IMG/VR virus record: IMGVR_UViG_3300032301_000472
Location: 1-41,048 of that record
Reading direction: 5' to 3' (one strand)
DNA length: 41,048 bases
DNA from: a virus
Lineage: Duplodnaviria > Caudoviricetes
Position 1 is the stretch's first letter. Every line of letters starts with the position of its first letter. The position numbers and the translations under genes were made by a program. Positions 3,294 through 40,112 of the stretch are shown here, in pieces. The notes beneath the pieces are model-generated. The model saw only the letters and a program-made list of their open reading frames with translations. It made no database searches and was not told the DNA's origin.

Positions 3294-3938
3294 TTAACCG
3301 TTCTTTCGGAAGCGGCGGATGCGATTCTTCTCCTGGCGCCAACGCTGCTGGGCGCTCATGGCAAGGTTGTTCATGCCAAGTGCGGTGACGTCTGAGTTGC
3401 CAGATCCCACCTGCCACTGCTGGAATTGTGCTCGGTCAAACGTAAGCATCGACAGTGATTCTGCCTCAACGAACACCTTGACTGCGTTCGCAGCGGTGAC
3501 GTCCAGGTTGGTAATGGAGGTTGTCTGTGCGGTGTTGATCTGCGTCCAGTCTCCGTAGCCAAAGATCTTTAGGGTTCCCTGACCGACAGCGAGGGTGTAA
3601 CGCGTCGGCAGGTACAAGACACCACCGTGGATTTCCCACCCAGAGTCTGGTCCTTCGCCGTTTGCTGGGTAAACTGTCTCTCGGTACTTTGAGTCGTTAT
3701 CGTAAACGTCCACTCGGATTGGCCAGGACACGTTAGTTAGGGCAACGGTGAACGCAGATCCGTTGATTGGCTGCGTAAACGCAACCGAGTCGATGGTCTC
3801 GCTTGGGTACACGCCGCCGATGGCGTCAATGCCACGGTTAATCAGTTCGCCAATTTGGGCGTCTGACCACGTCGTTCCGTTAGGGTCACGGAGCGACAGC
3901 CTCAGCGAGGTGAGAAGGCTTGAAAATGTGGTGCTCAT
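3294..3938 (-). CDS. Head-tail adaptor/connector protein
   Basis: N-terminal 'LRLSLRDP...WSDAQIGELINRG' is typical of phage adaptor proteins; lies downstream of the capsid gene. Confidence 0.6.
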   Translation of the reverse strand: MSTTFSSLLTSLRLSLRDPNGTTWSDAQIGELINRGIDAIGGVYPSETIDSVAFTQPINGSAFTVALTNVSWPIRVDVYDNDSKYRETVYPANGEGPDSGWEIHGGVLYLPTRYTLAVGQGTLKIFGYGDWTQINTAQTTSITNLDVTAANAVKVFVEAESLSMLTFDRAQFQQWQVGSGNSDVTALGMNNLAMSAQQRWRQEKNRIRRFRKNG

Positions 3939-5167
3939 GCGATCTTGGCTCCTTTTCCTTTATTCTCGGCTGCCCATTTGAAGGCGTCAGCCCATTCCTT
4001 TGCTCGATCCTTGTAGTGGTATTCCTTGAGGACTCGCTCTCGTGCGGACCCAGCCAGTTGCTCTCGCAGATCCTTGCTGCGTGTTAGTTTCTTCATCGCT
4101 TCGTACCACTCGCCACGACCACGGGCAAGGAGTCCGTCGACTCCGTCTCGAACAACCTCGTAAGGTCCACCGTTACGCATTCGTTCTCCGATGAACGCAC
4201 CGCCAACCATGGCGTATTCCAGCCAGTGAAGTTCTGACTTGGCTTGGTCGAAGACGTCACCCATAAGCGGCGCAATGCCGATGTCTGGGTGGCTGTTTGC
4301 AAGCGTCTCGCAGAACTTAGCGATACCCTCTACGTAGAGAACCTGCTCGTCGAAGAGGGGAGCAATAAAGTGTTCGGTTCCAGGATTGGTTCCAATGAAG
4401 ACGCGAGTCATCTCTTTCTTGAGATCCTCTACGGCCTTTCCAGCGTATCCGCCGATAATCTTTCCGCGTGGACCTTCTGGGTATCCAGCGTAGTCGCGGA
4501 TGCGAGCGGTGCTACCGTAGTACACCATTCGTGGCTTGTCGCCCGCTGGGCGTTCGGTGGTTGCCTTGTAGAGTTCTGGGTCAATGGCGTTGCGGATGAC
4601 CCTAATGTTGTCGTTGAATCTCGAATAACGATTGCCAATGACATCCGTTGACGTCGTTACCAAGTCGGCACGCTTGGCCATCTCCTCAATCATCACCAGT
4701 TCTGGAATAACGTCTTTCTTGTATCCGTTCCAGTCCTTGATGTTGAAATGGTCGTCGTCAGTTTCGTAGACAATTGCCTTGTCGTGGGCAGCAAATCTAA
4801 ATGCTGGCCAGAGGAGCCGCGTAATAAGATCGCGCTCTTTCCATCCGTGTGGGTGGTCAATGGCTTCTTGGTATGAGAATGTGACAAACGGACAAGTTTC
4901 TTCTTTGCAGCAAAGCGTAGTGTTGTAGTACCTGCGGAAGACGACGACGTCAGCCCAGTCAACTTCCGTAGAATCAAATTCGATGAAGCCCTTGTTGAAC
5001 GCCTCTGGCATTAGCATTTTTTCGCCGCCAGGCTTCACGTTGAAGTTGACTTTATTTAGACCCCTGTATTCGACTCCGAGTTTCTTGAGTTCCTCGGTGA
5101 ACTGGTGCCCACGGAAGTAGGCGCAAGGACCGTCCTCGACGTGTCCCCAAACTAGGACTTTCAGCAT
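3935..5167 (-). CDS. Glycosyltransferase (GT-B fold, GT4-like)
   Basis: 'ADVVVFRR', 'VYETDDD', 'ADLVTTST', 'VIRNAID', 'DIGIAPL...AKSELHWLEYAMVG', 'VRDGVDGLL'. Confidence 0.85.
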   Translation of the reverse strand: MLKVLVWGHVEDGPCAYFRGHQFTEELKKLGVEYRGLNKVNFNVKPGGEKMLMPEAFNKGFIEFDSTEVDWADVVVFRRYYNTTLCCKEETCPFVTFSYQEAIDHPHGWKERDLITRLLWPAFRFAAHDKAIVYETDDDHFNIKDWNGYKKDVIPELVMIEEMAKRADLVTTSTDVIGNRYSRFNDNIRVIRNAIDPELYKATTERPAGDKPRMVYYGSTARIRDYAGYPEGPRGKIIGGYAGKAVEDLKKEMTRVFIGTNPGTEHFIAPLFDEQVLYVEGIAKFCETLANSHPDIGIAPLMGDVFDQAKSELHWLEYAMVGGAFIGERMRNGGPYEVVRDGVDGLLARGRGEWYEAMKKLTRSKDLREQLAGSARERVLKEYHYKDRAKEWADAFKWAAENKGKGAKIA

Positions 5168-25232: not shown

Positions 25233-25546
25233 TTTTTACTCCTTGGGGGTATCCCCCTCTTAACCTGGCCTAGCGGCCAGGAGGTACGAACTCTAGTTTA
25301 GTTTAGACCCTGGGCAGGAGGATGAGTTCGTGGCCCCCTCTGTGTCTCCCCCATTTAACCAGAAAAAAGGGGGGTTTATGTCAAAAATGACATACGGTAT
25401 TTTTTCTTTGACTGACAAGGGGCTTTTTTCACGGGGGAGGCCGCCTTTTCACAGGGGTGTTCAATGCGGGGTGGGGTGTTCCTCACTATATTAGGGGATA
25501 CCCCCAAAATGCTACGGGGGGAGGGGACCTGAAATAAATTCAGAAA

Positions 25547-26395: not shown

Positions 26396-26450
26396 GTGAT
26401 AGTCAATAAATGATAGTAACCTTATGATAGGCGATTGTTACATTGTTACA
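26396..26450 (+). repeat. AT-rich cassette copy 1 (3x TGATAG + TTGTTACA repeats)
   Basis: GTGATAGTCAATAAATGATAGTAACCTTATGATAG...TTGTTACATTGTTACA. Confidence 0.85.
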
Positions 26451-26495
26451 TAGAACAGATGTTCTATTTGCCAATTAGAACAGATGTTCTATTTG
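26451..26495. promoter_or_regulatory. Two tandem LexA (SOS)-type boxes AGAAC-N4-GTTCT
   Basis: TAGAACAGATGTTCTA at 26451-26466 and 26476-26491, inside a 20 bp perfect direct repeat. Confidence 0.75.
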
Positions 26496-26573: not shown

Positions 26574-26821
26574 CCCCCTTGACTTTTGGAAAACCCCGCA
26601 GCGTGGCTCCTAGGTGCCTCTACGGTCAAATGCCCCAAAAGGGTGTCTGTACCCCACCCTGACCCCAAACGCCTCTCTCCGTGGCTCCTAGACCCCTGTT
26701 ATTTTCGCCGCATTGGCACCTACCAGCCACGCAGAGCCCCGTTCTCCCTCAGACCCCATAATCCCCCACCCCAGCCGAAACGCCTCTCTCCGTGGCGCAA
26801 ATCGCCTCGCTCCAGCGGGGA

Positions 26822-26890
26822 TGATAGTCAATAATGATAGTTACCTTATGATAGGATTTGTTACATGTTACATTGTTAAGAAATCTTACA
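26822..26890 (+). repeat. AT-rich cassette copy 2
   Basis: TGATAGTCAATAATGATAGTTACCTTATGATAG...TTGTTACATGTTACATTGTTAAGAAATCTTACA. Confidence 0.85.
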
Positions 26891-27070
26891 CATTGGCGTT
26901 AACATTCCGTTAACATTGATGCTTCACAATGGTCATAGACGAAGAGGAGCGATCCTCTGGGTGATGGGTGACTGACCCGTGGTGAACGGAGGCAGTCAAC
27001 CGATAAGCCCGACGATCAGGTGACTGAGACCCAGCACCTGACCGAAGAGTCCTTGGACAGATGAATAGAG

Positions 27071-27160
27071 ACCTCCAAACGAAACGGTGGGTGCATAGGC
27101 AACCCTTCAGCCCCACCGTCTGCGGACTTGTATGATCCGCACTGATGAGTAACTGGAGGT
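27071..27160 (+). ncRNA. Hammerhead ribozyme 1 (type II), predicted cleavage after C27120
   Basis: AC-GAAA-CGGTGGG...CCCACCG-TC / TGCGGA-loop-TCCGCA-CTGATGA-GT; distal ACCTCCA pairs with TGGAGGT. Confidence 0.85.
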
Positions 27161-27165
27161 TCACA

Positions 27166-27435
27166 ATGGCAGTCAAGATTATCCCGATGACGTTCGTGGT
27201 AAAGGTGCCGAAGATCTTTTGGGACGATCACGTCTCACGAGATCTGGACTTCACCTCAACGATCATCAAGGAGTCTGGTGCCTTCTATGAAGTGCTCATG
27301 ACCATTGATGCCATCAATGAGTTGTGGTCGGATGCCGACTACTACGGCAACTTCATGAAGGAGTTTGAGAACGACGGCGGTCGCTCAATCTGCGCAAGTG
27401 CTCGCGCTACGGTGCGCGCACTAGAAAACCGATAG
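27166..27435 (+). CDS. Hypothetical early protein (ribozyme cassette ORF 1)
   Basis: TGGAGGT RBS then ATG 27166 (MAVKIIP...); the track's 27145 start lies within the ribozyme core. Confidence 0.75.
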   Translation: MAVKIIPMTFVVKVPKIFWDDHVSRDLDFTSTIIKESGAFYEVLMTIDAINELWSDADYYGNFMKEFENDGGRSICASARATVRALENR

Positions 27436-27496
27436 CCGAAACTAGCCGATGCGAACGGCTAGTATGCTGGGATTGATTACCCAGCACTGATGAGGC
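27435..27496 (+). ncRNA. Hammerhead ribozyme 2 (type II), predicted cleavage after A27464
   Basis: GCC-GAAA-CTAGCCG-loop-CGGCTAG-TA / TGCTGGG-ATTGATTA-CCCAGCA-CTGATGA-GGC. Confidence 0.9.
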
Positions 27497-27523
27497 AGAT
27501 CCTCGTAACTGGAGGTACACACA

Positions 27524-27757
27524 ATGACCAACGGCAAACTGGCACTGCTGCGACTGGCAATGCGTGAGTTTGAGGGCATCTCTGCTTCGGCTGAGATGTT
27601 CATCAGCAACGCACACAACCACAGCGAGGCAGACGCTGAGATCTGGGACTTGCTCAAGAAGATCGGCGCGATCCAAGAGAAGTCCGACAAGATCCTCAAC
27701 AAGTTGTACGGCAAGACGAAGCCGTACGAAGACATTCAGATCAAGGAGATCTACTAG
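27524..27757 (+). CDS. Hypothetical early protein (ribozyme cassette ORF 2)
   Basis: GGAGG RBS, 77 aa helical protein. Confidence 0.75.
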   Translation: MTNGKLALLRLAMREFEGISASAEMFISNAHNHSEADAEIWDLLKKIGAIQEKSDKILNKLYGKTKPYEDIQIKEIY

Positions 27758-27809
27758 CCGAAACCCCTTCGGGGGTCTGGCGGGATTGATTACCCGCCAC
27801 TGACGAGGC
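27757..27809 (+). ncRNA. Hammerhead ribozyme 3 (type II), predicted cleavage after C27777
   Basis: GCC-GAAA-CCCC-TTCG-GGGG-TC / TGGCGGG-ATTGATTA-CCCGCCA-CTGACGA-GGC. Confidence 0.92.
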
Positions 27810-27835
27810 AGATCCTCACACACTGGAGGTTCACA

Positions 27836-28120
27836 ATGGACACGCTAACGAATGCGGTTCAGCCACGTGCGACTGATCGCGCGACCCTTGACCACAAGAA
27901 TGTGTGGCGGATTGCGTGCCAGATTCCCACGTGCCTTCTACCTGCAACGTGGACGTTCTTTTATGCTGATGGTGGTGCCAATCGTTATTGCCGCCACCAT
28001 GGCAACAATCGGTATGAGACTGGCGCGTATGCGACAGCCAACCATGCCCCGATCAAGGCTCCTCTTTCTGTTGACATGAAGGATGAACTTCGTGTTGACA
28101 TGGAGGCGTCAACCATCTAG
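27836..28120 (+). CDS. Hypothetical early protein, possible Zn finger (ribozyme cassette ORF 3)
   Basis: GGAGG RBS; 'CQIPTC...YCRHH'. Confidence 0.7.
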   Translation: MDTLTNAVQPRATDRATLDHKNVWRIACQIPTCLLPATWTFFYADGGANRYCRHHGNNRYETGAYATANHAPIKAPLSVDMKDELRVDMEASTI

Positions 28121-28173: not shown

Positions 28174-28198
28174 AGACACCTCGCAACTGGAGGACACA

Positions 28199-28456
28199 AT
28201 GAACGGATCAACAGTGCTCAGGATTCAGGTCGCACTCAACACGTGGTACCAGATCCACACGAACGGAGGCACGACGACCTTCGCCCGTGTGACTCAGGGC
28301 GAGGACTCTGACGGCTACGGCTGCTTCTGGTTTGAGAAGATGTCGGTGGACTCAACCAGCAAGGAAGGCAGTGCTGAGGTCTTCGGGCATCAGGACTTCA
28401 CGGGCGACCTCACAGCGTTTGAGCGCCTGTACGCCGCGATTGAGAGCGGCATCTGA
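28199..28456 (+). CDS. Hypothetical early protein (ribozyme cassette ORF 4)
   Basis: GGAGG RBS, 85 aa. Confidence 0.75.
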   Translation: MNGSTVLRIQVALNTWYQIHTNGGTTTFARVTQGEDSDGYGCFWFEKMSVDSTSKEGSAEVFGHQDFTGDLTAFERLYAAIESGI

Positions 28457-28462
28457 CGGGAT

Positions 28463-28494
28463 CGGCGGCGGTGGGCTTCGGCTTGCCGCCGCCG
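28463..28494 (+). terminator. Strong hairpin closing the ribozyme operon (no U-tract)
   Basis: CGGCGGCGGTGGGC-TTCG-GCTTGCCGCCGCCG. Confidence 0.6.
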
Positions 28495-28575
28495 TGATAG
28501 TCAATAATGATAGAAAATCCTTATGATAGAAAATTGTTACATGTTTGTTACATGTTACATTGTTAAGAAATCTTA
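28494..28575 (+). repeat. AT-rich cassette copy 3
   Basis: GTGATAGTCAATAATGATAGAAAATCCTTATGATAG...TTGTTACA...TTGTTAAGAAATCTTA. Confidence 0.85.
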
Positions 28576-29471: not shown

Positions 29472-29545
29472 GTGATAGCAAATAATGATAGAAAATCCTT
29501 ATGATAGAAAATTGTTACATTGTTACATTGTTAAGAAACCTTACA
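29472..29545 (+). repeat. AT-rich cassette copy 4
   Basis: GTGATAGCAAATAATGATAGAAAATCCTTATGATAG...TTGTTACATTGTTACATTGTTAAGAAACCTTACA. Confidence 0.85.
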
Positions 29546-37649: not shown

Positions 37650-38317
37650 CCTCTACACTCCTTTAACCATTGGCAGCCCTTGCAGGGCCACTGCGCCTTC
37701 ATATCTCCCCCACGGGAGGGCAAGCGAGGCGGCTTACGCTTGTCATAATAATTGAGAGCCTTGAGCACACGTACCGCTCGGTCACGCCAACCCCGCTCCA
37801 AAAGGTATTCTACCATCTGGAAGTTATCTGCGCAAACGTAGACCACACGAGCCTCGTGGGGGTCACCAGTCTGCGTCTCAAGGATGTGCGCGTAGATCGA
37901 CGCCTGAATGGCGTGCTCTGGCTTTACGGTCTTGAGGTACTGCATGCCACGGCTGTTGATTGACTTGTACTCCCAGACCTCCTTGATGCCGTCCTTGCGC
38001 TCAACGACCGCGTCCGCGTTTCCTGAGAAGTTGTACTCTTCCCAGATCAGTGGCACCTCTTCGACAAACGACACGAGGTCGCCAGCCAACTCGGCTTCAC
38101 GACCAGCGCGGTTGAGCACCTCGGCGACAACGTGCCCGCGCTCGAAGACGCGGTACAGGCTGTCTGGGAACGGGTTGCTAGACTCTACGCCCTCGGCGCT
38201 GTACCACTGCTGTCGGATGCACGCACCCAGCAGGGAGCCACGCCAACGGCGTGCCGCAGGGCGCCCGACGGCAGCCTTGCGCATGAGGTGGGCATCGAGG
38301 ACCTTCGAGACGCTCAC
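37646..38317 (-). CDS. Cas4-like PD-(D/E)xK exonuclease
   Basis: 'CIRQQWY', 'GHVV', 'SGNADA...WEYKS', 'QASIY', C-terminal 'CKGCQW..C'. Confidence 0.8.
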   Translation of the reverse strand: MSVSKVLDAHLMRKAAVGRPAARRWRGSLLGACIRQQWYSAEGVESSNPFPDSLYRVFERGHVVAEVLNRAGREAELAGDLVSFVEEVPLIWEEYNFSGNADAVVERKDGIKEVWEYKSINSRGMQYLKTVKPEHAIQASIYAHILETQTGDPHEARVVYVCADNFQMVEYLLERGWRDRAVRVLKALNYYDKRKPPRLPSRGGDMKAQWPCKGCQWLKECRG

Positions 38318-39273
38318 GACCACAACTTCTTCTGGTAGAGGTCCGTACGGGTTGGCAGGTTGCCGTTGTATGCGCGTAGACACTTCTCGACCTTCCACAG
38401 GTTCTCTGGGTTATGCGTCGTCTTAAACTCGTTGTCGCGGATCTCGAGGTGGAACTTCACCTTGCTGTTGTCCATGTGGTAGTCTCGTCGGTCGCCGTCG
38501 CCCGTGCCGTACTCGACGCGTGCGTTGAGCGCCTGCCCAATGCGAGCCGCAAGATCGTAGACCGTGATGTTCTCGGAGCAGACGTTCATGATGCCATGCG
38601 CGGATGGGTTTAGGGCAGCCAAGGCAATTGCCAGCCCAGCGTCCTCGACGTTGAGGATCGGGCGGCGGGCATCTGACTTCGGCTTGATCACGCCCATGTG
38701 GATGGCTTCCCAGGCAAACGCATTGACCACGAGGTCGCGGCGCATGTTCGGAGCCTCGCCCCACAGGGTGCCAAGGCGCAGCGATACCCACGGGTGGTTC
38801 TCCTGCTTGAGGAGCCACGAGTCCGTCTGGTACTTGGTGCGAGCGTACGCGGTCAACGGGTTGACTGCGGCTTCCTCGGTCGACGGCTTGTCCCGACCAG
38901 CGCCGTAAACGGATGCCGACGAAATGTAGATGAACTTGCCCGATGGGTTCTCGTGCCAGAAGCGCTTCGCCTGAAGGATCGGCTGCTCGTAGTTCGACCA
39001 CTCCGTGTCGAAGGCGTCGAGTTCTCCGAGGTGGTCGTTGCTGACCGCAGCCAACCAGATGATGACGTCATAGGAACCGAGTGGATCCACGTCAAAGAGC
39101 CGCGAGTTTAGACCATTGCGTTCGCTGTGCGGAATGTGATCAGCGCTGAGACCCAGCATGCTGTCGACGTACCAATCCTCGTCGATGCCGTGGACGGTAA
39201 CGCCCGCCCGCTTGAGATGCTTCACCGCCGCTGGGCCAACGTACCCACGGTGACCGACCACTAGTGCCTTCAT
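38314..39273 (-). CDS. NAD-dependent nucleotide-sugar epimerase/dehydratase (extended SDR)
   Basis: 'GHRGYVG', 'SSASVYG', YxxxK 'YARTK'; start MKAL. Confidence 0.88.
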   Translation of the reverse strand: MKALVVGHRGYVGPAAVKHLKRAGVTVHGIDEDWYVDSMLGLSADHIPHSERNGLNSRLFDVDPLGSYDVIIWLAAVSNDHLGELDAFDTEWSNYEQPILQAKRFWHENPSGKFIYISSASVYGAGRDKPSTEEAAVNPLTAYARTKYQTDSWLLKQENHPWVSLRLGTLWGEAPNMRRDLVVNAFAWEAIHMGVIKPKSDARRPILNVEDAGLAIALAALNPSAHGIMNVCSENITVYDLAARIGQALNARVEYGTGDGDRRDYHMDNSKVKFHLEIRDNEFKTTHNPENLWKVEKCLRAYNGNLPTRTDLYQKKLWS

Positions 39274-40112
39274 CGCTTGATCCTTTCTTCCGCTTTTGTG
39301 CCACGGAAATATTCGTCCATCGCTTCCGTCCAGTGGCGGAGGCGTGGCAATCGCGTATTCTTCAACGCACCGTACGTCGGTCGCGTCTTGTCCCATCGCA
39401 TGGAGCCGACAATCTTCGAATTGTTACGGTTAAGTTTTCGAGCCTGACGGGCAACCTCGACCCACGTCGCTGTTCCCTCATTGACTACATGGTACACCCC
39501 TGTCGCAGCCGCGTCCTCTGCCAAGTCGATGATGACCTTCGCTGCGTCTGGCAGGTAGGAGATCCTAAAGAACTGGTCTGCTGGCAGGTCCAGTTCCTTG
39601 TACGACATGGAAGCGAAGTCTACGAAGTGCGGCTTCATCGGTGACGGGTAGACGCCGAAGGGGCTGCTAATGCGAGCCACGACGCCGCCGCGTGATAGTA
39701 CGACACGCTCGCCTTCCAACTTGGTCTGACCGTAGATGCTGAGGGCACCTCGGCTCTCCGCCTTCTCATCCAGCGTGCGTGACTCCTGGTTCTCGTCAAA
39801 GACGTAGTCTGTGCTGATGTAGATCTGGTTCGTCACTTCACCAATGATCTTGGCTAGGTCGACGTTCGCAATGTACGCGTCGTGTGGGTTCTTATCGCAC
39901 AGCGCAATGTCCCGTAACGCGGCGCAGTTGATCACTTGCTTAATCGCGTGACTACGCAGCAGGTTTGGCAAGGTCTCTGGGGTATAAGAAAACACGCCCG
40001 ACTCCCGCATAGGAGCCGAGCGTGTATAGACGACGTGCGGGATCTCCCGAGCCTTGAGTTCCGCGATAATGTGCTGGGCAACCTGCCCTGTTCCGACGAC
40101 CCCGTAATTCAT
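39270..40112 (-). CDS. rmlD: dTDP-4-dehydrorhamnose reductase (RmlD-like)
   Basis: 'GTGQV', 'INCAA', 'ISTDYVF', 'YGQTKLEGE'. Confidence 0.85.
   Translation of the reverse strand: MNYGVVGTGQVAQHIIAELKAREIPHVVYTRSAPMRESGVFSYTPETLPNLLRSHAIKQVINCAALRDIALCDKNPHDAYIANVDLAKIIGEVTNQIYISTDYVFDENQESRTLDEKAESRGALSIYGQTKLEGERVVLSRGGVVARISSPFGVYPSPMKPHFVDFASMSYKELDLPADQFFRISYLPDAAKVIIDLAEDAAATGVYHVVNEGTATWVEVARQARKLNRNNSKIVGSMRWDKTRPTYGALKNTRLPRLRHWTEAMDEYFRGTKAEERIKR

Follow-up and report, generated by a model that had tools for sequence, protein, structure and literature searches.

An anti-Shine-Dalgarno arm at the first hammerhead ribozyme of a phage gene array and its putative role as a cut-before-translate gate

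Introduction

Does the first self-cleaving ribozyme of a phage gene array keep the ribosome-binding site of the gene behind it out of reach until the RNA has been cut? The question is raised by a locus in a 41,048-nt stretch of DNA (hereafter the window), which is an entire virus record and carries terminase, portal, major head, tail and DnaB genes. Its plus strand carries four small ORFs, each preceded by a type II hammerhead motif, and a sequence-only reading had proposed that an arm upstream of the first motif hides the Shine-Dalgarno (SD) site of the following gene, with translation blocked until cleavage and release of the 5' fragment, possibly as a timer or as a ligand-gated step. Tandem type II hammerheads around single (pro)phage genes have been described and are active in E. 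coli as well as in vitro (Perreault et al. 2011, PMC3088659); the terms "Shine", "ribosome binding" and "translation" are all absent from the main text of that report. According to a 2019 review (PMC6765202), the roles of self-cleaving ribozymes in bacteria and phages are largely elusive, glmS being the sole well-understood case.

Results

The phage and its gene array

Sequences related to the window come mostly from runs labelled as lake-water, freshwater, fungus or unspecified metagenomes. Among the 120 DnaB matches listed, the only ones with an organism name are two from Ca. Limnocylindrales/Limnocylindrus, at 52-55% identity, which weakly suggests a host in the Chloroflexota. A scan of GTDB returned 47 matches with no convincing hammerhead among them, and consequently no host could be assigned through a prophage. 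The features of the array and its leader, all on the plus strand, are as follows.

26931-27068, plus strand: structured 5' leader of about 140-150 nt, conserved; transcription start inferred from relatives
26977-26989, plus strand: apical leader hairpin whose GGUG(A) loop is conserved; 4 pairs, 3 of them with two-sided changes (11 sequences)
27057-27067, plus strand: ACAGNUGAAUA motif, invariant columns in 16 sequences; relatives were gathered by this motif without selection for the anti-SD
27070-27077, plus strand: anti-Shine-Dalgarno arm with the sequence (G)ACCUCCA, 5' of the predicted cut
27079-27150, plus strand: hammerhead 1, type II, predicted cut after C27120
27079-27080 with 27149-27150, plus strand: stem II of hammerhead 1, 2 bp (A27079-U27150 and C27080-G27149)
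27081-27084 (GAAA), 27118-27120 (GUC) and 27142-27148 (CUGAUGA), plus strand: core of hammerhead 1, matching the consensus in type II order (stem II open)
27084-27094 with 27110-27119, plus strand: stem III of hammerhead 1, 8 contiguous pairs
27121-27127 with 27134-27141, plus strand: stem I of hammerhead 1, 6 contiguous pairs
27154-27161, plus strand: Shine-Dalgarno sequence UGGAGGU(U) of ORF1, 3' strand of the putative masking helix; the TGGAGG box is common to ORFs 2-4
27166-27435, plus strand: ORF1, 89 aa, no family; its stop codon adjoins hammerhead 2
27435-27496, plus strand: hammerhead 2, type II, GUA triplet, predicted cut after 27464; 44 bits in Rfam; no upstream anti-SD
27524-27757, plus strand: ORF2, 77 aa; resembles, by eye and at the level of translations, the first gene of another array (L437)
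27757-27809, plus strand: hammerhead 3, predicted cut after 27777; 44.3 bits in Rfam; no upstream anti-SD
27836-28120, plus strand: ORF3, 94 aa
28120-28173, plus strand: hammerhead 4, predicted cut after 28140; 41.5 bits in Rfam; no upstream anti-SD
28199-28456, plus strand: ORF4, 85 aa, last gene of the array

Ribozymes 2-4 start at the preceding ORF's stop codon and score above the Rfam threshold, and each of the four ribozymes is followed by TGGAGG and then ATG; a box of the TGGAGG type is also found ahead of many genes of the phage arm carrying the array. The triplet of ribozyme 2 (window 27464) is GUA here and GUC in contigs of runs X2, X3 and X7. Twelve homologues of ORF1 were found, and searches for its function gave no match in PHROGs or Pfam and no usable match in the Atlas. 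Behind ORF4 the alignment of a weak Rfam match shows a GC-rich hairpin at about 28463-28494.

Elsewhere in the window, an AT-rich block is present four times (26396-26451, 26821-26888, 28494-28575 and 29472-29543) and two of these copies directly precede TTGACA promoters (28578 and 29557); the block is likely an operator or upstream element. A perfect 14-nt inverted repeat (25243-25256 and 25494-25507, 237 nt apart) lies between the divergent gene arms and is possibly an origin, packaging or regulatory site. One glycosyltransferase gene and two nucleotide-sugar epimerase genes (3935-5167, 38314-39396 and 39270-40112, minus strand) suggest glycosylation of the virion or of the DNA.

Hammerhead 1 and the predicted helix between its anti-SD and the SD

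As the sequence-only reading held, ACCTCCA at 27071-27077 and TGGAGGT at 27154-27160 are perfect Watson-Crick complements, and the ATG at 27166-27168 as well as the GTC triplet at 27118-27120 were confirmed in the window. G27070 and U27161 form an eighth pair, resulting in an 8-bp SD helix that includes one G-U. The accompanying statement that the pairing extends stem II stands in so far as the helix lies beyond that stem, but a 1x3 internal loop separates the two. Hammerhead 1 has three stems, of which I and III are loop-closed, and the G10.1-C11.1 pair is present. Against the Rfam Hammerhead_II model (RF02276) it scored 29.6 bits (E=0.0044), under the 37-bit gathering score, which is a library threshold and not a catalytic feature; among the matches listed, the first ribozymes of relatives scored 30.9-39.1 bits. 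The anti-SD belongs to the 5' product and the SD to the 3' product, on opposite sides of the predicted cut after C27120. In ViennaRNA the central pair 27074-27157 was predicted with P=0.999 in all four precursor lengths, and the fold of 27066-27170 reached z=-3.56 relative to 200 shuffles.

Conservation across related arrays

Alignment of anti-SD-positive arrays revealed a conserved upstream leader ending in ACAGNTGAATA, and a rescan with the leader motif alone returned 20 viral and 39 metagenome loci, with a hammerhead fold behind the motif in 18. ACCUCC is present in 16 of these 18; in the other two (L380 and L429) the motif nearly abuts the core and there is no match to the leader model. 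The set compared below consists of 16 arrays, namely 14 leader-motif arrays (duplicates L411 and L423 dropped), L294, which was found through the anti-SD pattern, and the window; the leader motif itself was derived from arrays first found by their anti-SD, and the set is consequently not fully blind. Identity over leader and ribozyme ranges from 52 to 96% (median 63%), with 12 clusters at 90%.

All 16 first ribozymes carry ACCUCC, always 4 nt ahead of GAAA, and CCUCC is found upstream of 16/16 first but 0/45 internal ribozymes, a contrast that Fisher P values overstate because the arrays share ancestry and the counts are not independent. At the anti-SD site 43 of the 45 internal ribozymes have a stop triplet instead (the frame was checked for the window only). 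The median energy of the anti-SD/SD duplex is -13.2 kcal/mol at first and -4.8 kcal/mol at internal ribozymes, one of which reaches -11.6 kcal/mol. The SD reads GGAGGU at every first site and at 30/45 internal ones, and GGAGGUC, which gives a G-C flank pair, is found at 5/16 first versus 0/45 internal sites. Judged from these sequences, the complementarity between anti-SD and SD is not a matter of chance: ACCTCCA occurs four times on the plus strand of the window, corresponding to a chance of about 0.15% per 15-nt zone, a post-hoc figure compared with which the conservation is the stronger test.

Within the family the six core pairs of the SD helix are invariant, hence without covariation, and the pair at the other end is formed in 4 of the 16 arrays. 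The flank pair is G-U in six arrays, G-C in five, A-U in four and unpaired in one, with a covariation that is not significant (permutation P=0.10), whereas stems I and III and the pseudoknot show two-sided changes among the same relatives. Since the SD is constrained and cannot vary freely, compensation must come from other lineages.

The protein encoded behind ribozyme 1 varies between arrays (a translatable ORF is present in 15/16), and none of the 13 viral loci with an ORF1 homologue has a hammerhead. Because the first gene differs, the mask would belong to position 1 and travel with the leader, not with ORF 27166. In most of the loci L248-L257, a TTGACA promoter and a short hairpin leader immediately precede the ORF1 homologue, and there is no ribozyme. 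An exact search of viral contigs with the ribozyme tail plus SD gave one match, not a hammerhead, and the four loci of the neighbouring 129-aa gene, which are short on the array side, held no hammerheads.

Two pattern scans extended the comparison. A scan for CCTCC before GAAAC (120 loci, 5 of 64 parts) yielded two matching hammerheads, one with the same layout. The full CCWCC scan (118 loci, CTGATGAG only) yielded 15 distinct hammerheads with CCUCC and 21 with CCACC, and GGAGG lies downstream in 6/15 of the former versus 1/21 of the latter.

A different short complement accompanies the internal ribozymes: CCUC is located just past the pseudoknot strand of ribozymes 2-4 (window 27501-27504, 27814-27817 and 28179-28182, plus strand), where it can form a weak hairpin with its own GAGG, and is seen in 19/45 internal versus 0/16 first ribozymes. 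Being 3' of the cut, this hairpin would adjust translation whether or not cleavage takes place.

The upstream leader RNA

Leader, anti-SD and stem III together make up a predicted 5' cleavage product of about 190 nt. Two-sided changes occur at 7 of the 9 consensus pairs of the 16 leaders, and the predicted leader fold has z=-4.76 in the window and -3.98 to +0.98 in the other arrays. The distance from the promoter region to ribozyme 1 is about 135-200 nt, and 10 of 15 leaders have a sigma70-type promoter pattern directly upstream; no such pattern directly precedes the window leader, the nearest (26825-26852) matching 9 of 12 positions. The leader had no match in Rfam, and its candidature as a known riboswitch, a T-box or a second ribozyme was discarded on that result. 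It is nonetheless the one place where regulation could enter, and candidate roles for it are antitermination, protein binding and action as a small RNA.

Pseudoknot and stem II

A loop I-tail pseudoknot of 5-7 bp is found in 15/15 relatives, while the window copy, with at most 2 bp, falls below the 4 bp or more of loop I-tail pairing taken here to define a pseudoknot of the type described in 2011; its tail lacks six bases and its loop is different, and the pseudoknot is thereby lost. The same pseudoknot-less ribozyme is present in contigs of runs X2, X8, X13 and X20 (the last labelled RNA-Seq, probably DNA), which belong to four studies other than that of X1, the run from which the window probably comes, and once it is followed by another gene; given this recurrence across studies it is no assembly slip. 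The pseudoknot form is found in X3, X4, X7 and a second X13 contig. Shortening of the pseudoknot led to large rate losses, and it is needed for fast cutting (Perreault et al. 2011, PMC3088659), for which reason the window copy may cleave at a low rate or rely on the SD helix. Stem II has 2 bp in 14 of the 16 first ribozymes, with 1 bp in one of the remaining two and 3 bp in the other, compared with 3-4 bp in 45/45 internal ones. The crystal structure in PMC11300833 has another connectivity and leaves the coexistence of SD helix and pseudoknot unsettled.

Other lineages with their own SD

In two other lineages the anti-SD matches the array's own, different SD. The record G002 (L490, G002:C1:3000-12000, minus strand) has 12 hammerheads, all with the SD GAAGGAGGA; the first, preceded by a leader of about 175 nt, forms the 9-bp anti-SD pairing UCCUCCUUC/GAAGGAGGA at -16.5 kcal/mol, and the best of the 11 internal ones reaches -7.5 kcal/mol. 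This record was found with the CCWCC pattern, which selects for the anti-SD core and not for the restriction to position 1 or for the extension. The second lineage has the SD GGGAAG, paired as UGCUUCCC/GGGAAGCA over 8 bp in the fragment L493 and as CUUCCC/GGGAAG over 6 bp at the first ribozyme of G001; it provides the weaker evidence, since an internal ribozyme of G001 nearly equals the first (-10.2 versus -10.8 kcal/mol) and a single ribozyme is seen in the L493 fragment. The covariance model of the leader matched family members only, and not G001, G002 or L493.

The anti-SD was also considered as a general feature of type II hammerheads and rejected as such: none of 55 hammerhead-SD units had a duplex at or below -11 kcal/mol, with 0.67 expected from swaps. 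These were the distinct units from 122 loci, in 12 of 64 parts scanned, and were selected only on a downstream TGGAGG; as far as these sequences tell, most phage hammerheads manage without a mask. The Streptomyces phages Marav, Paedore and Haizum (L485, L486 and L487) each have at least 7 type II hammerheads between small genes, which are absent from the annotated features. The most upstream ribozyme found in these arrays has only a 2-3 bp match (the true first may lie outside or have been missed), and one internal ribozyme has a 7-bp match. The three phages are culturable, and the function of hammerhead arrays could be studied there.

Predicted accessibility and duplex energetics

At first ribozymes the median probability that the SD is unpaired is predicted to rise from 0.005 before to 0.485 after release, compared with 0.40 and 0.52 at internal ribozymes. 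For the window, release would raise the value from near 0.0 to 0.61-0.67 if little 3' context is included, but to only 0.25 when 27121-27260 is folded, as the SD can re-pair with coding sequence. When the full leader is folded freely the SD helix has P>=0.9 in only 9/16 arrays, and with stems I and III enforced P>=0.8 in 13/16. The product duplex is predicted at -10.8, -13.0 and -14.1 kcal/mol at 37, 20 and 10 C, with half-lives of 3-27 s, 6-57 min and 1.4-14 h, respectively, assuming on-rates of 1e7-1e6 per M per s and secondary structure only. In cold water, according to this model, the product duplex may outlast the message, as release may be slow there. The suggestion that cleavage and release act as a timer is thus plausible in terms of the modelled energetics.

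Discussion

The architecture of anti-SD and SD is, in the sequences compared, real, conserved and restricted to the first ribozyme, and fits a cleavage-coupled ON step. We hypothesize, at roughly even odds (about 0.5), that the first hammerhead is a cut-before-translate gate that also clamps its own 2-bp stem II. A 30S subunit bound at the SD of hammerhead 1 would sit over the strand needed for stem II and pseudoknot formation. In the uncut RNA, the SD helix would keep the subunit off this overlapping site and at the same time brace the 2-bp stem II, enabling the ribozyme to fold and cut. After the cut, only the SD helix and 2 bp would hold the leader product to the message, and once the strands part, or a ribosome displaces the arm, translation of ORF1 would proceed on a shortened message with a 5'-OH, as for the downstream cassettes. 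RNAs with such an end are resistant to decay that depends on the 5' end. Such a gate would work constitutively, with a delay that depends on temperature, and ligands would not control it. The layout predicts that a dead ribozyme is off, an active one on and an anti-SD mutant on regardless, which would make this a directly testable job for a phage ribozyme; ribozymes 2-4 supply negative controls within the same array, and nature offers variants that have the pseudoknot as well as variants that lack it.

The features that recommend a gate also invite a purely structural explanation, in which the helix closes the ribozyme domain, insulates it from the leader and makes up for the short stem II, while co-transcriptional cutting is so fast that masking of the SD leaves protein output unaffected. 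The 2-bp stem II typical of first ribozymes against the 3-4 bp of internal ones, the fixed linker length and the persistence of the pseudoknot-less variant in four other studies, as if the helix replaced the tertiary contact, all agree with it, and tandem hammerheads do cleave while being transcribed in vitro (Perreault et al. 2011, PMC3088659). Any sequence would however serve such a clamp, yet three lineages each pair with their own SD, and one extra pair in stem II would be simpler, though that can slow cutting (same source). We take this explanation, including its claim on protein output, seriously as a minority view; if it alone were true, the locus would represent a modest structural variant. 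The same match to different SDs in G002 and L493/G001, together with the restriction to position 1, the fixed spacing and the nearly always paired flank bases, weighs against a coincidence fixed by descent, in which ACCUCC would be conserved within the leader motif for some other reason and would not pair with the SD. That two-sided changes are lacking from the SD helix in the family, and that CCUCC does not exceed the control CCACC in frequency ahead of viral hammerheads generally (15 versus 21 distinct), would be expected under this coincidence, which we nevertheless consider very improbable.

The conserved and covarying leader of about 150 nt, always ahead of the anti-SD, raises the issue of regulation. 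A natural aptazyme, whose leader binds a ligand, protein or RNA and thereby controls either cutting or the choice of the anti-SD between the SD and the leader, would be in line with G-rich stretches of the leader that can take up CCUCC, alternative partners being predicted at P of 0.6-0.8 in 7 of 16 5' products. The predicted alternative site differs across arrays, however, control would reach ORF1 only, and the different small protein that comes first in most arrays argues against gene-specific logic; with no aptamer match in Rfam and a gene behind ribozyme 1 that changes from array to array, the ligand gating put forward by the sequence-only reading finds no support, and a regulated switch of any kind seems improbable. 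Alternatively, the released leader might hold or rebind the SD as a thermosensor-like damper of ORF1, or mask the shared GGAGG boxes of phage or host messages as a small RNA, with cutting serving mainly to mature the leader RNA. The arm outcompetes a 7-nt 16S-like motif at -13.3 versus -10.0 kcal/mol, the Kd predicted for it drops from 25 nM (37 C) to 0.2 nM (20 C), CCUCC is predicted to be 58% unpaired in the free 5' product, and the same SD box stands ahead of many genes in the phage arm. A seed of 6-8 nt is short for action in trans, on the other hand, and the fixed 4-nt spacing to stem II points to a role in cis, which leaves this proposal a slim chance. A broader scenario would unite several of these elements in a natural ON switch: the leader senses a host or phage signal or temperature and times the cut of hammerhead 1, the freed leader with its exposed anti-SD then acts as a small RNA on shared GGAGG boxes, and several lineages reached the design separately with their own SDs. 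We offer it as speculation and hold it to be distinctly unlikely.

Comparison with known systems

The cut-before-translate gate can be set beside systems of several kinds. With the clustered hammerheads assigned to RF02276 (Perreault et al. 2011, PMC3088659) the window array shares the type II topology, the consensus core, the short stem II and the tandem placement between small, variable genes, for which processing to single-gene mRNAs was proposed; the loop I-tail pseudoknot is likewise found in ribozymes 2-4 and in the relatives, but not in ribozyme 1 of the window. Unlike the arrays described there, the first ribozyme here adds an anti-SD helix and a conserved leader.

Processing by RNase III or RNase E is known to free occluded ribosome-binding sites in phage mRNAs; in the present case the cut would be self-catalysed and the masking arm built into the ribozyme. 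In the RiboJ insulator, cutting removes upstream RNA and standardises the 5' end before the ribosome-binding site, without an anti-SD. Natural ligand-dependent ribozymes, including glmS, are similar in that a catalytic RNA in the 5' leader affects expression of the next gene, but they belong to other classes, cutting by glmS lowers expression, and no ligand is indicated for the phage unit.

The original engineered hammerhead design for masking an SD is reportedly that of Wieland and Hartig. A search of the open-access literature for a natural SD-masking hammerhead found none, and as far as the sources consulted go, ribozymes that mask the SD are engineered constructs for E. coli (PMC7445771, PMC5052635, PMC12192606), the active form giving 5- to about 100-fold more reporter (PMC5052635). 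The phage unit resembles these hammerhead and twister switches in that a helix flanking the ribozyme contains the SD and loses its other strand on cleavage, after which translation follows (here a prediction). It differs from them in several respects: the engineered hammerhead is of type I with the SD in an extended stem I, whereas the phage ribozyme is natural, of type II and has the SD beyond stem II; stem I of the phage ribozyme would remain part of the message, 12-13 nt upstream of the SD (in the twister P1 design, output was lowered by a leftover hairpin); and no aptamer was identified through Rfam in the phage unit, unlike in the engineered ligand switches. If the gate is confirmed, phages would be using the SD-masking switch design of synthetic biologists, and a new family of leader RNA would come along with it.
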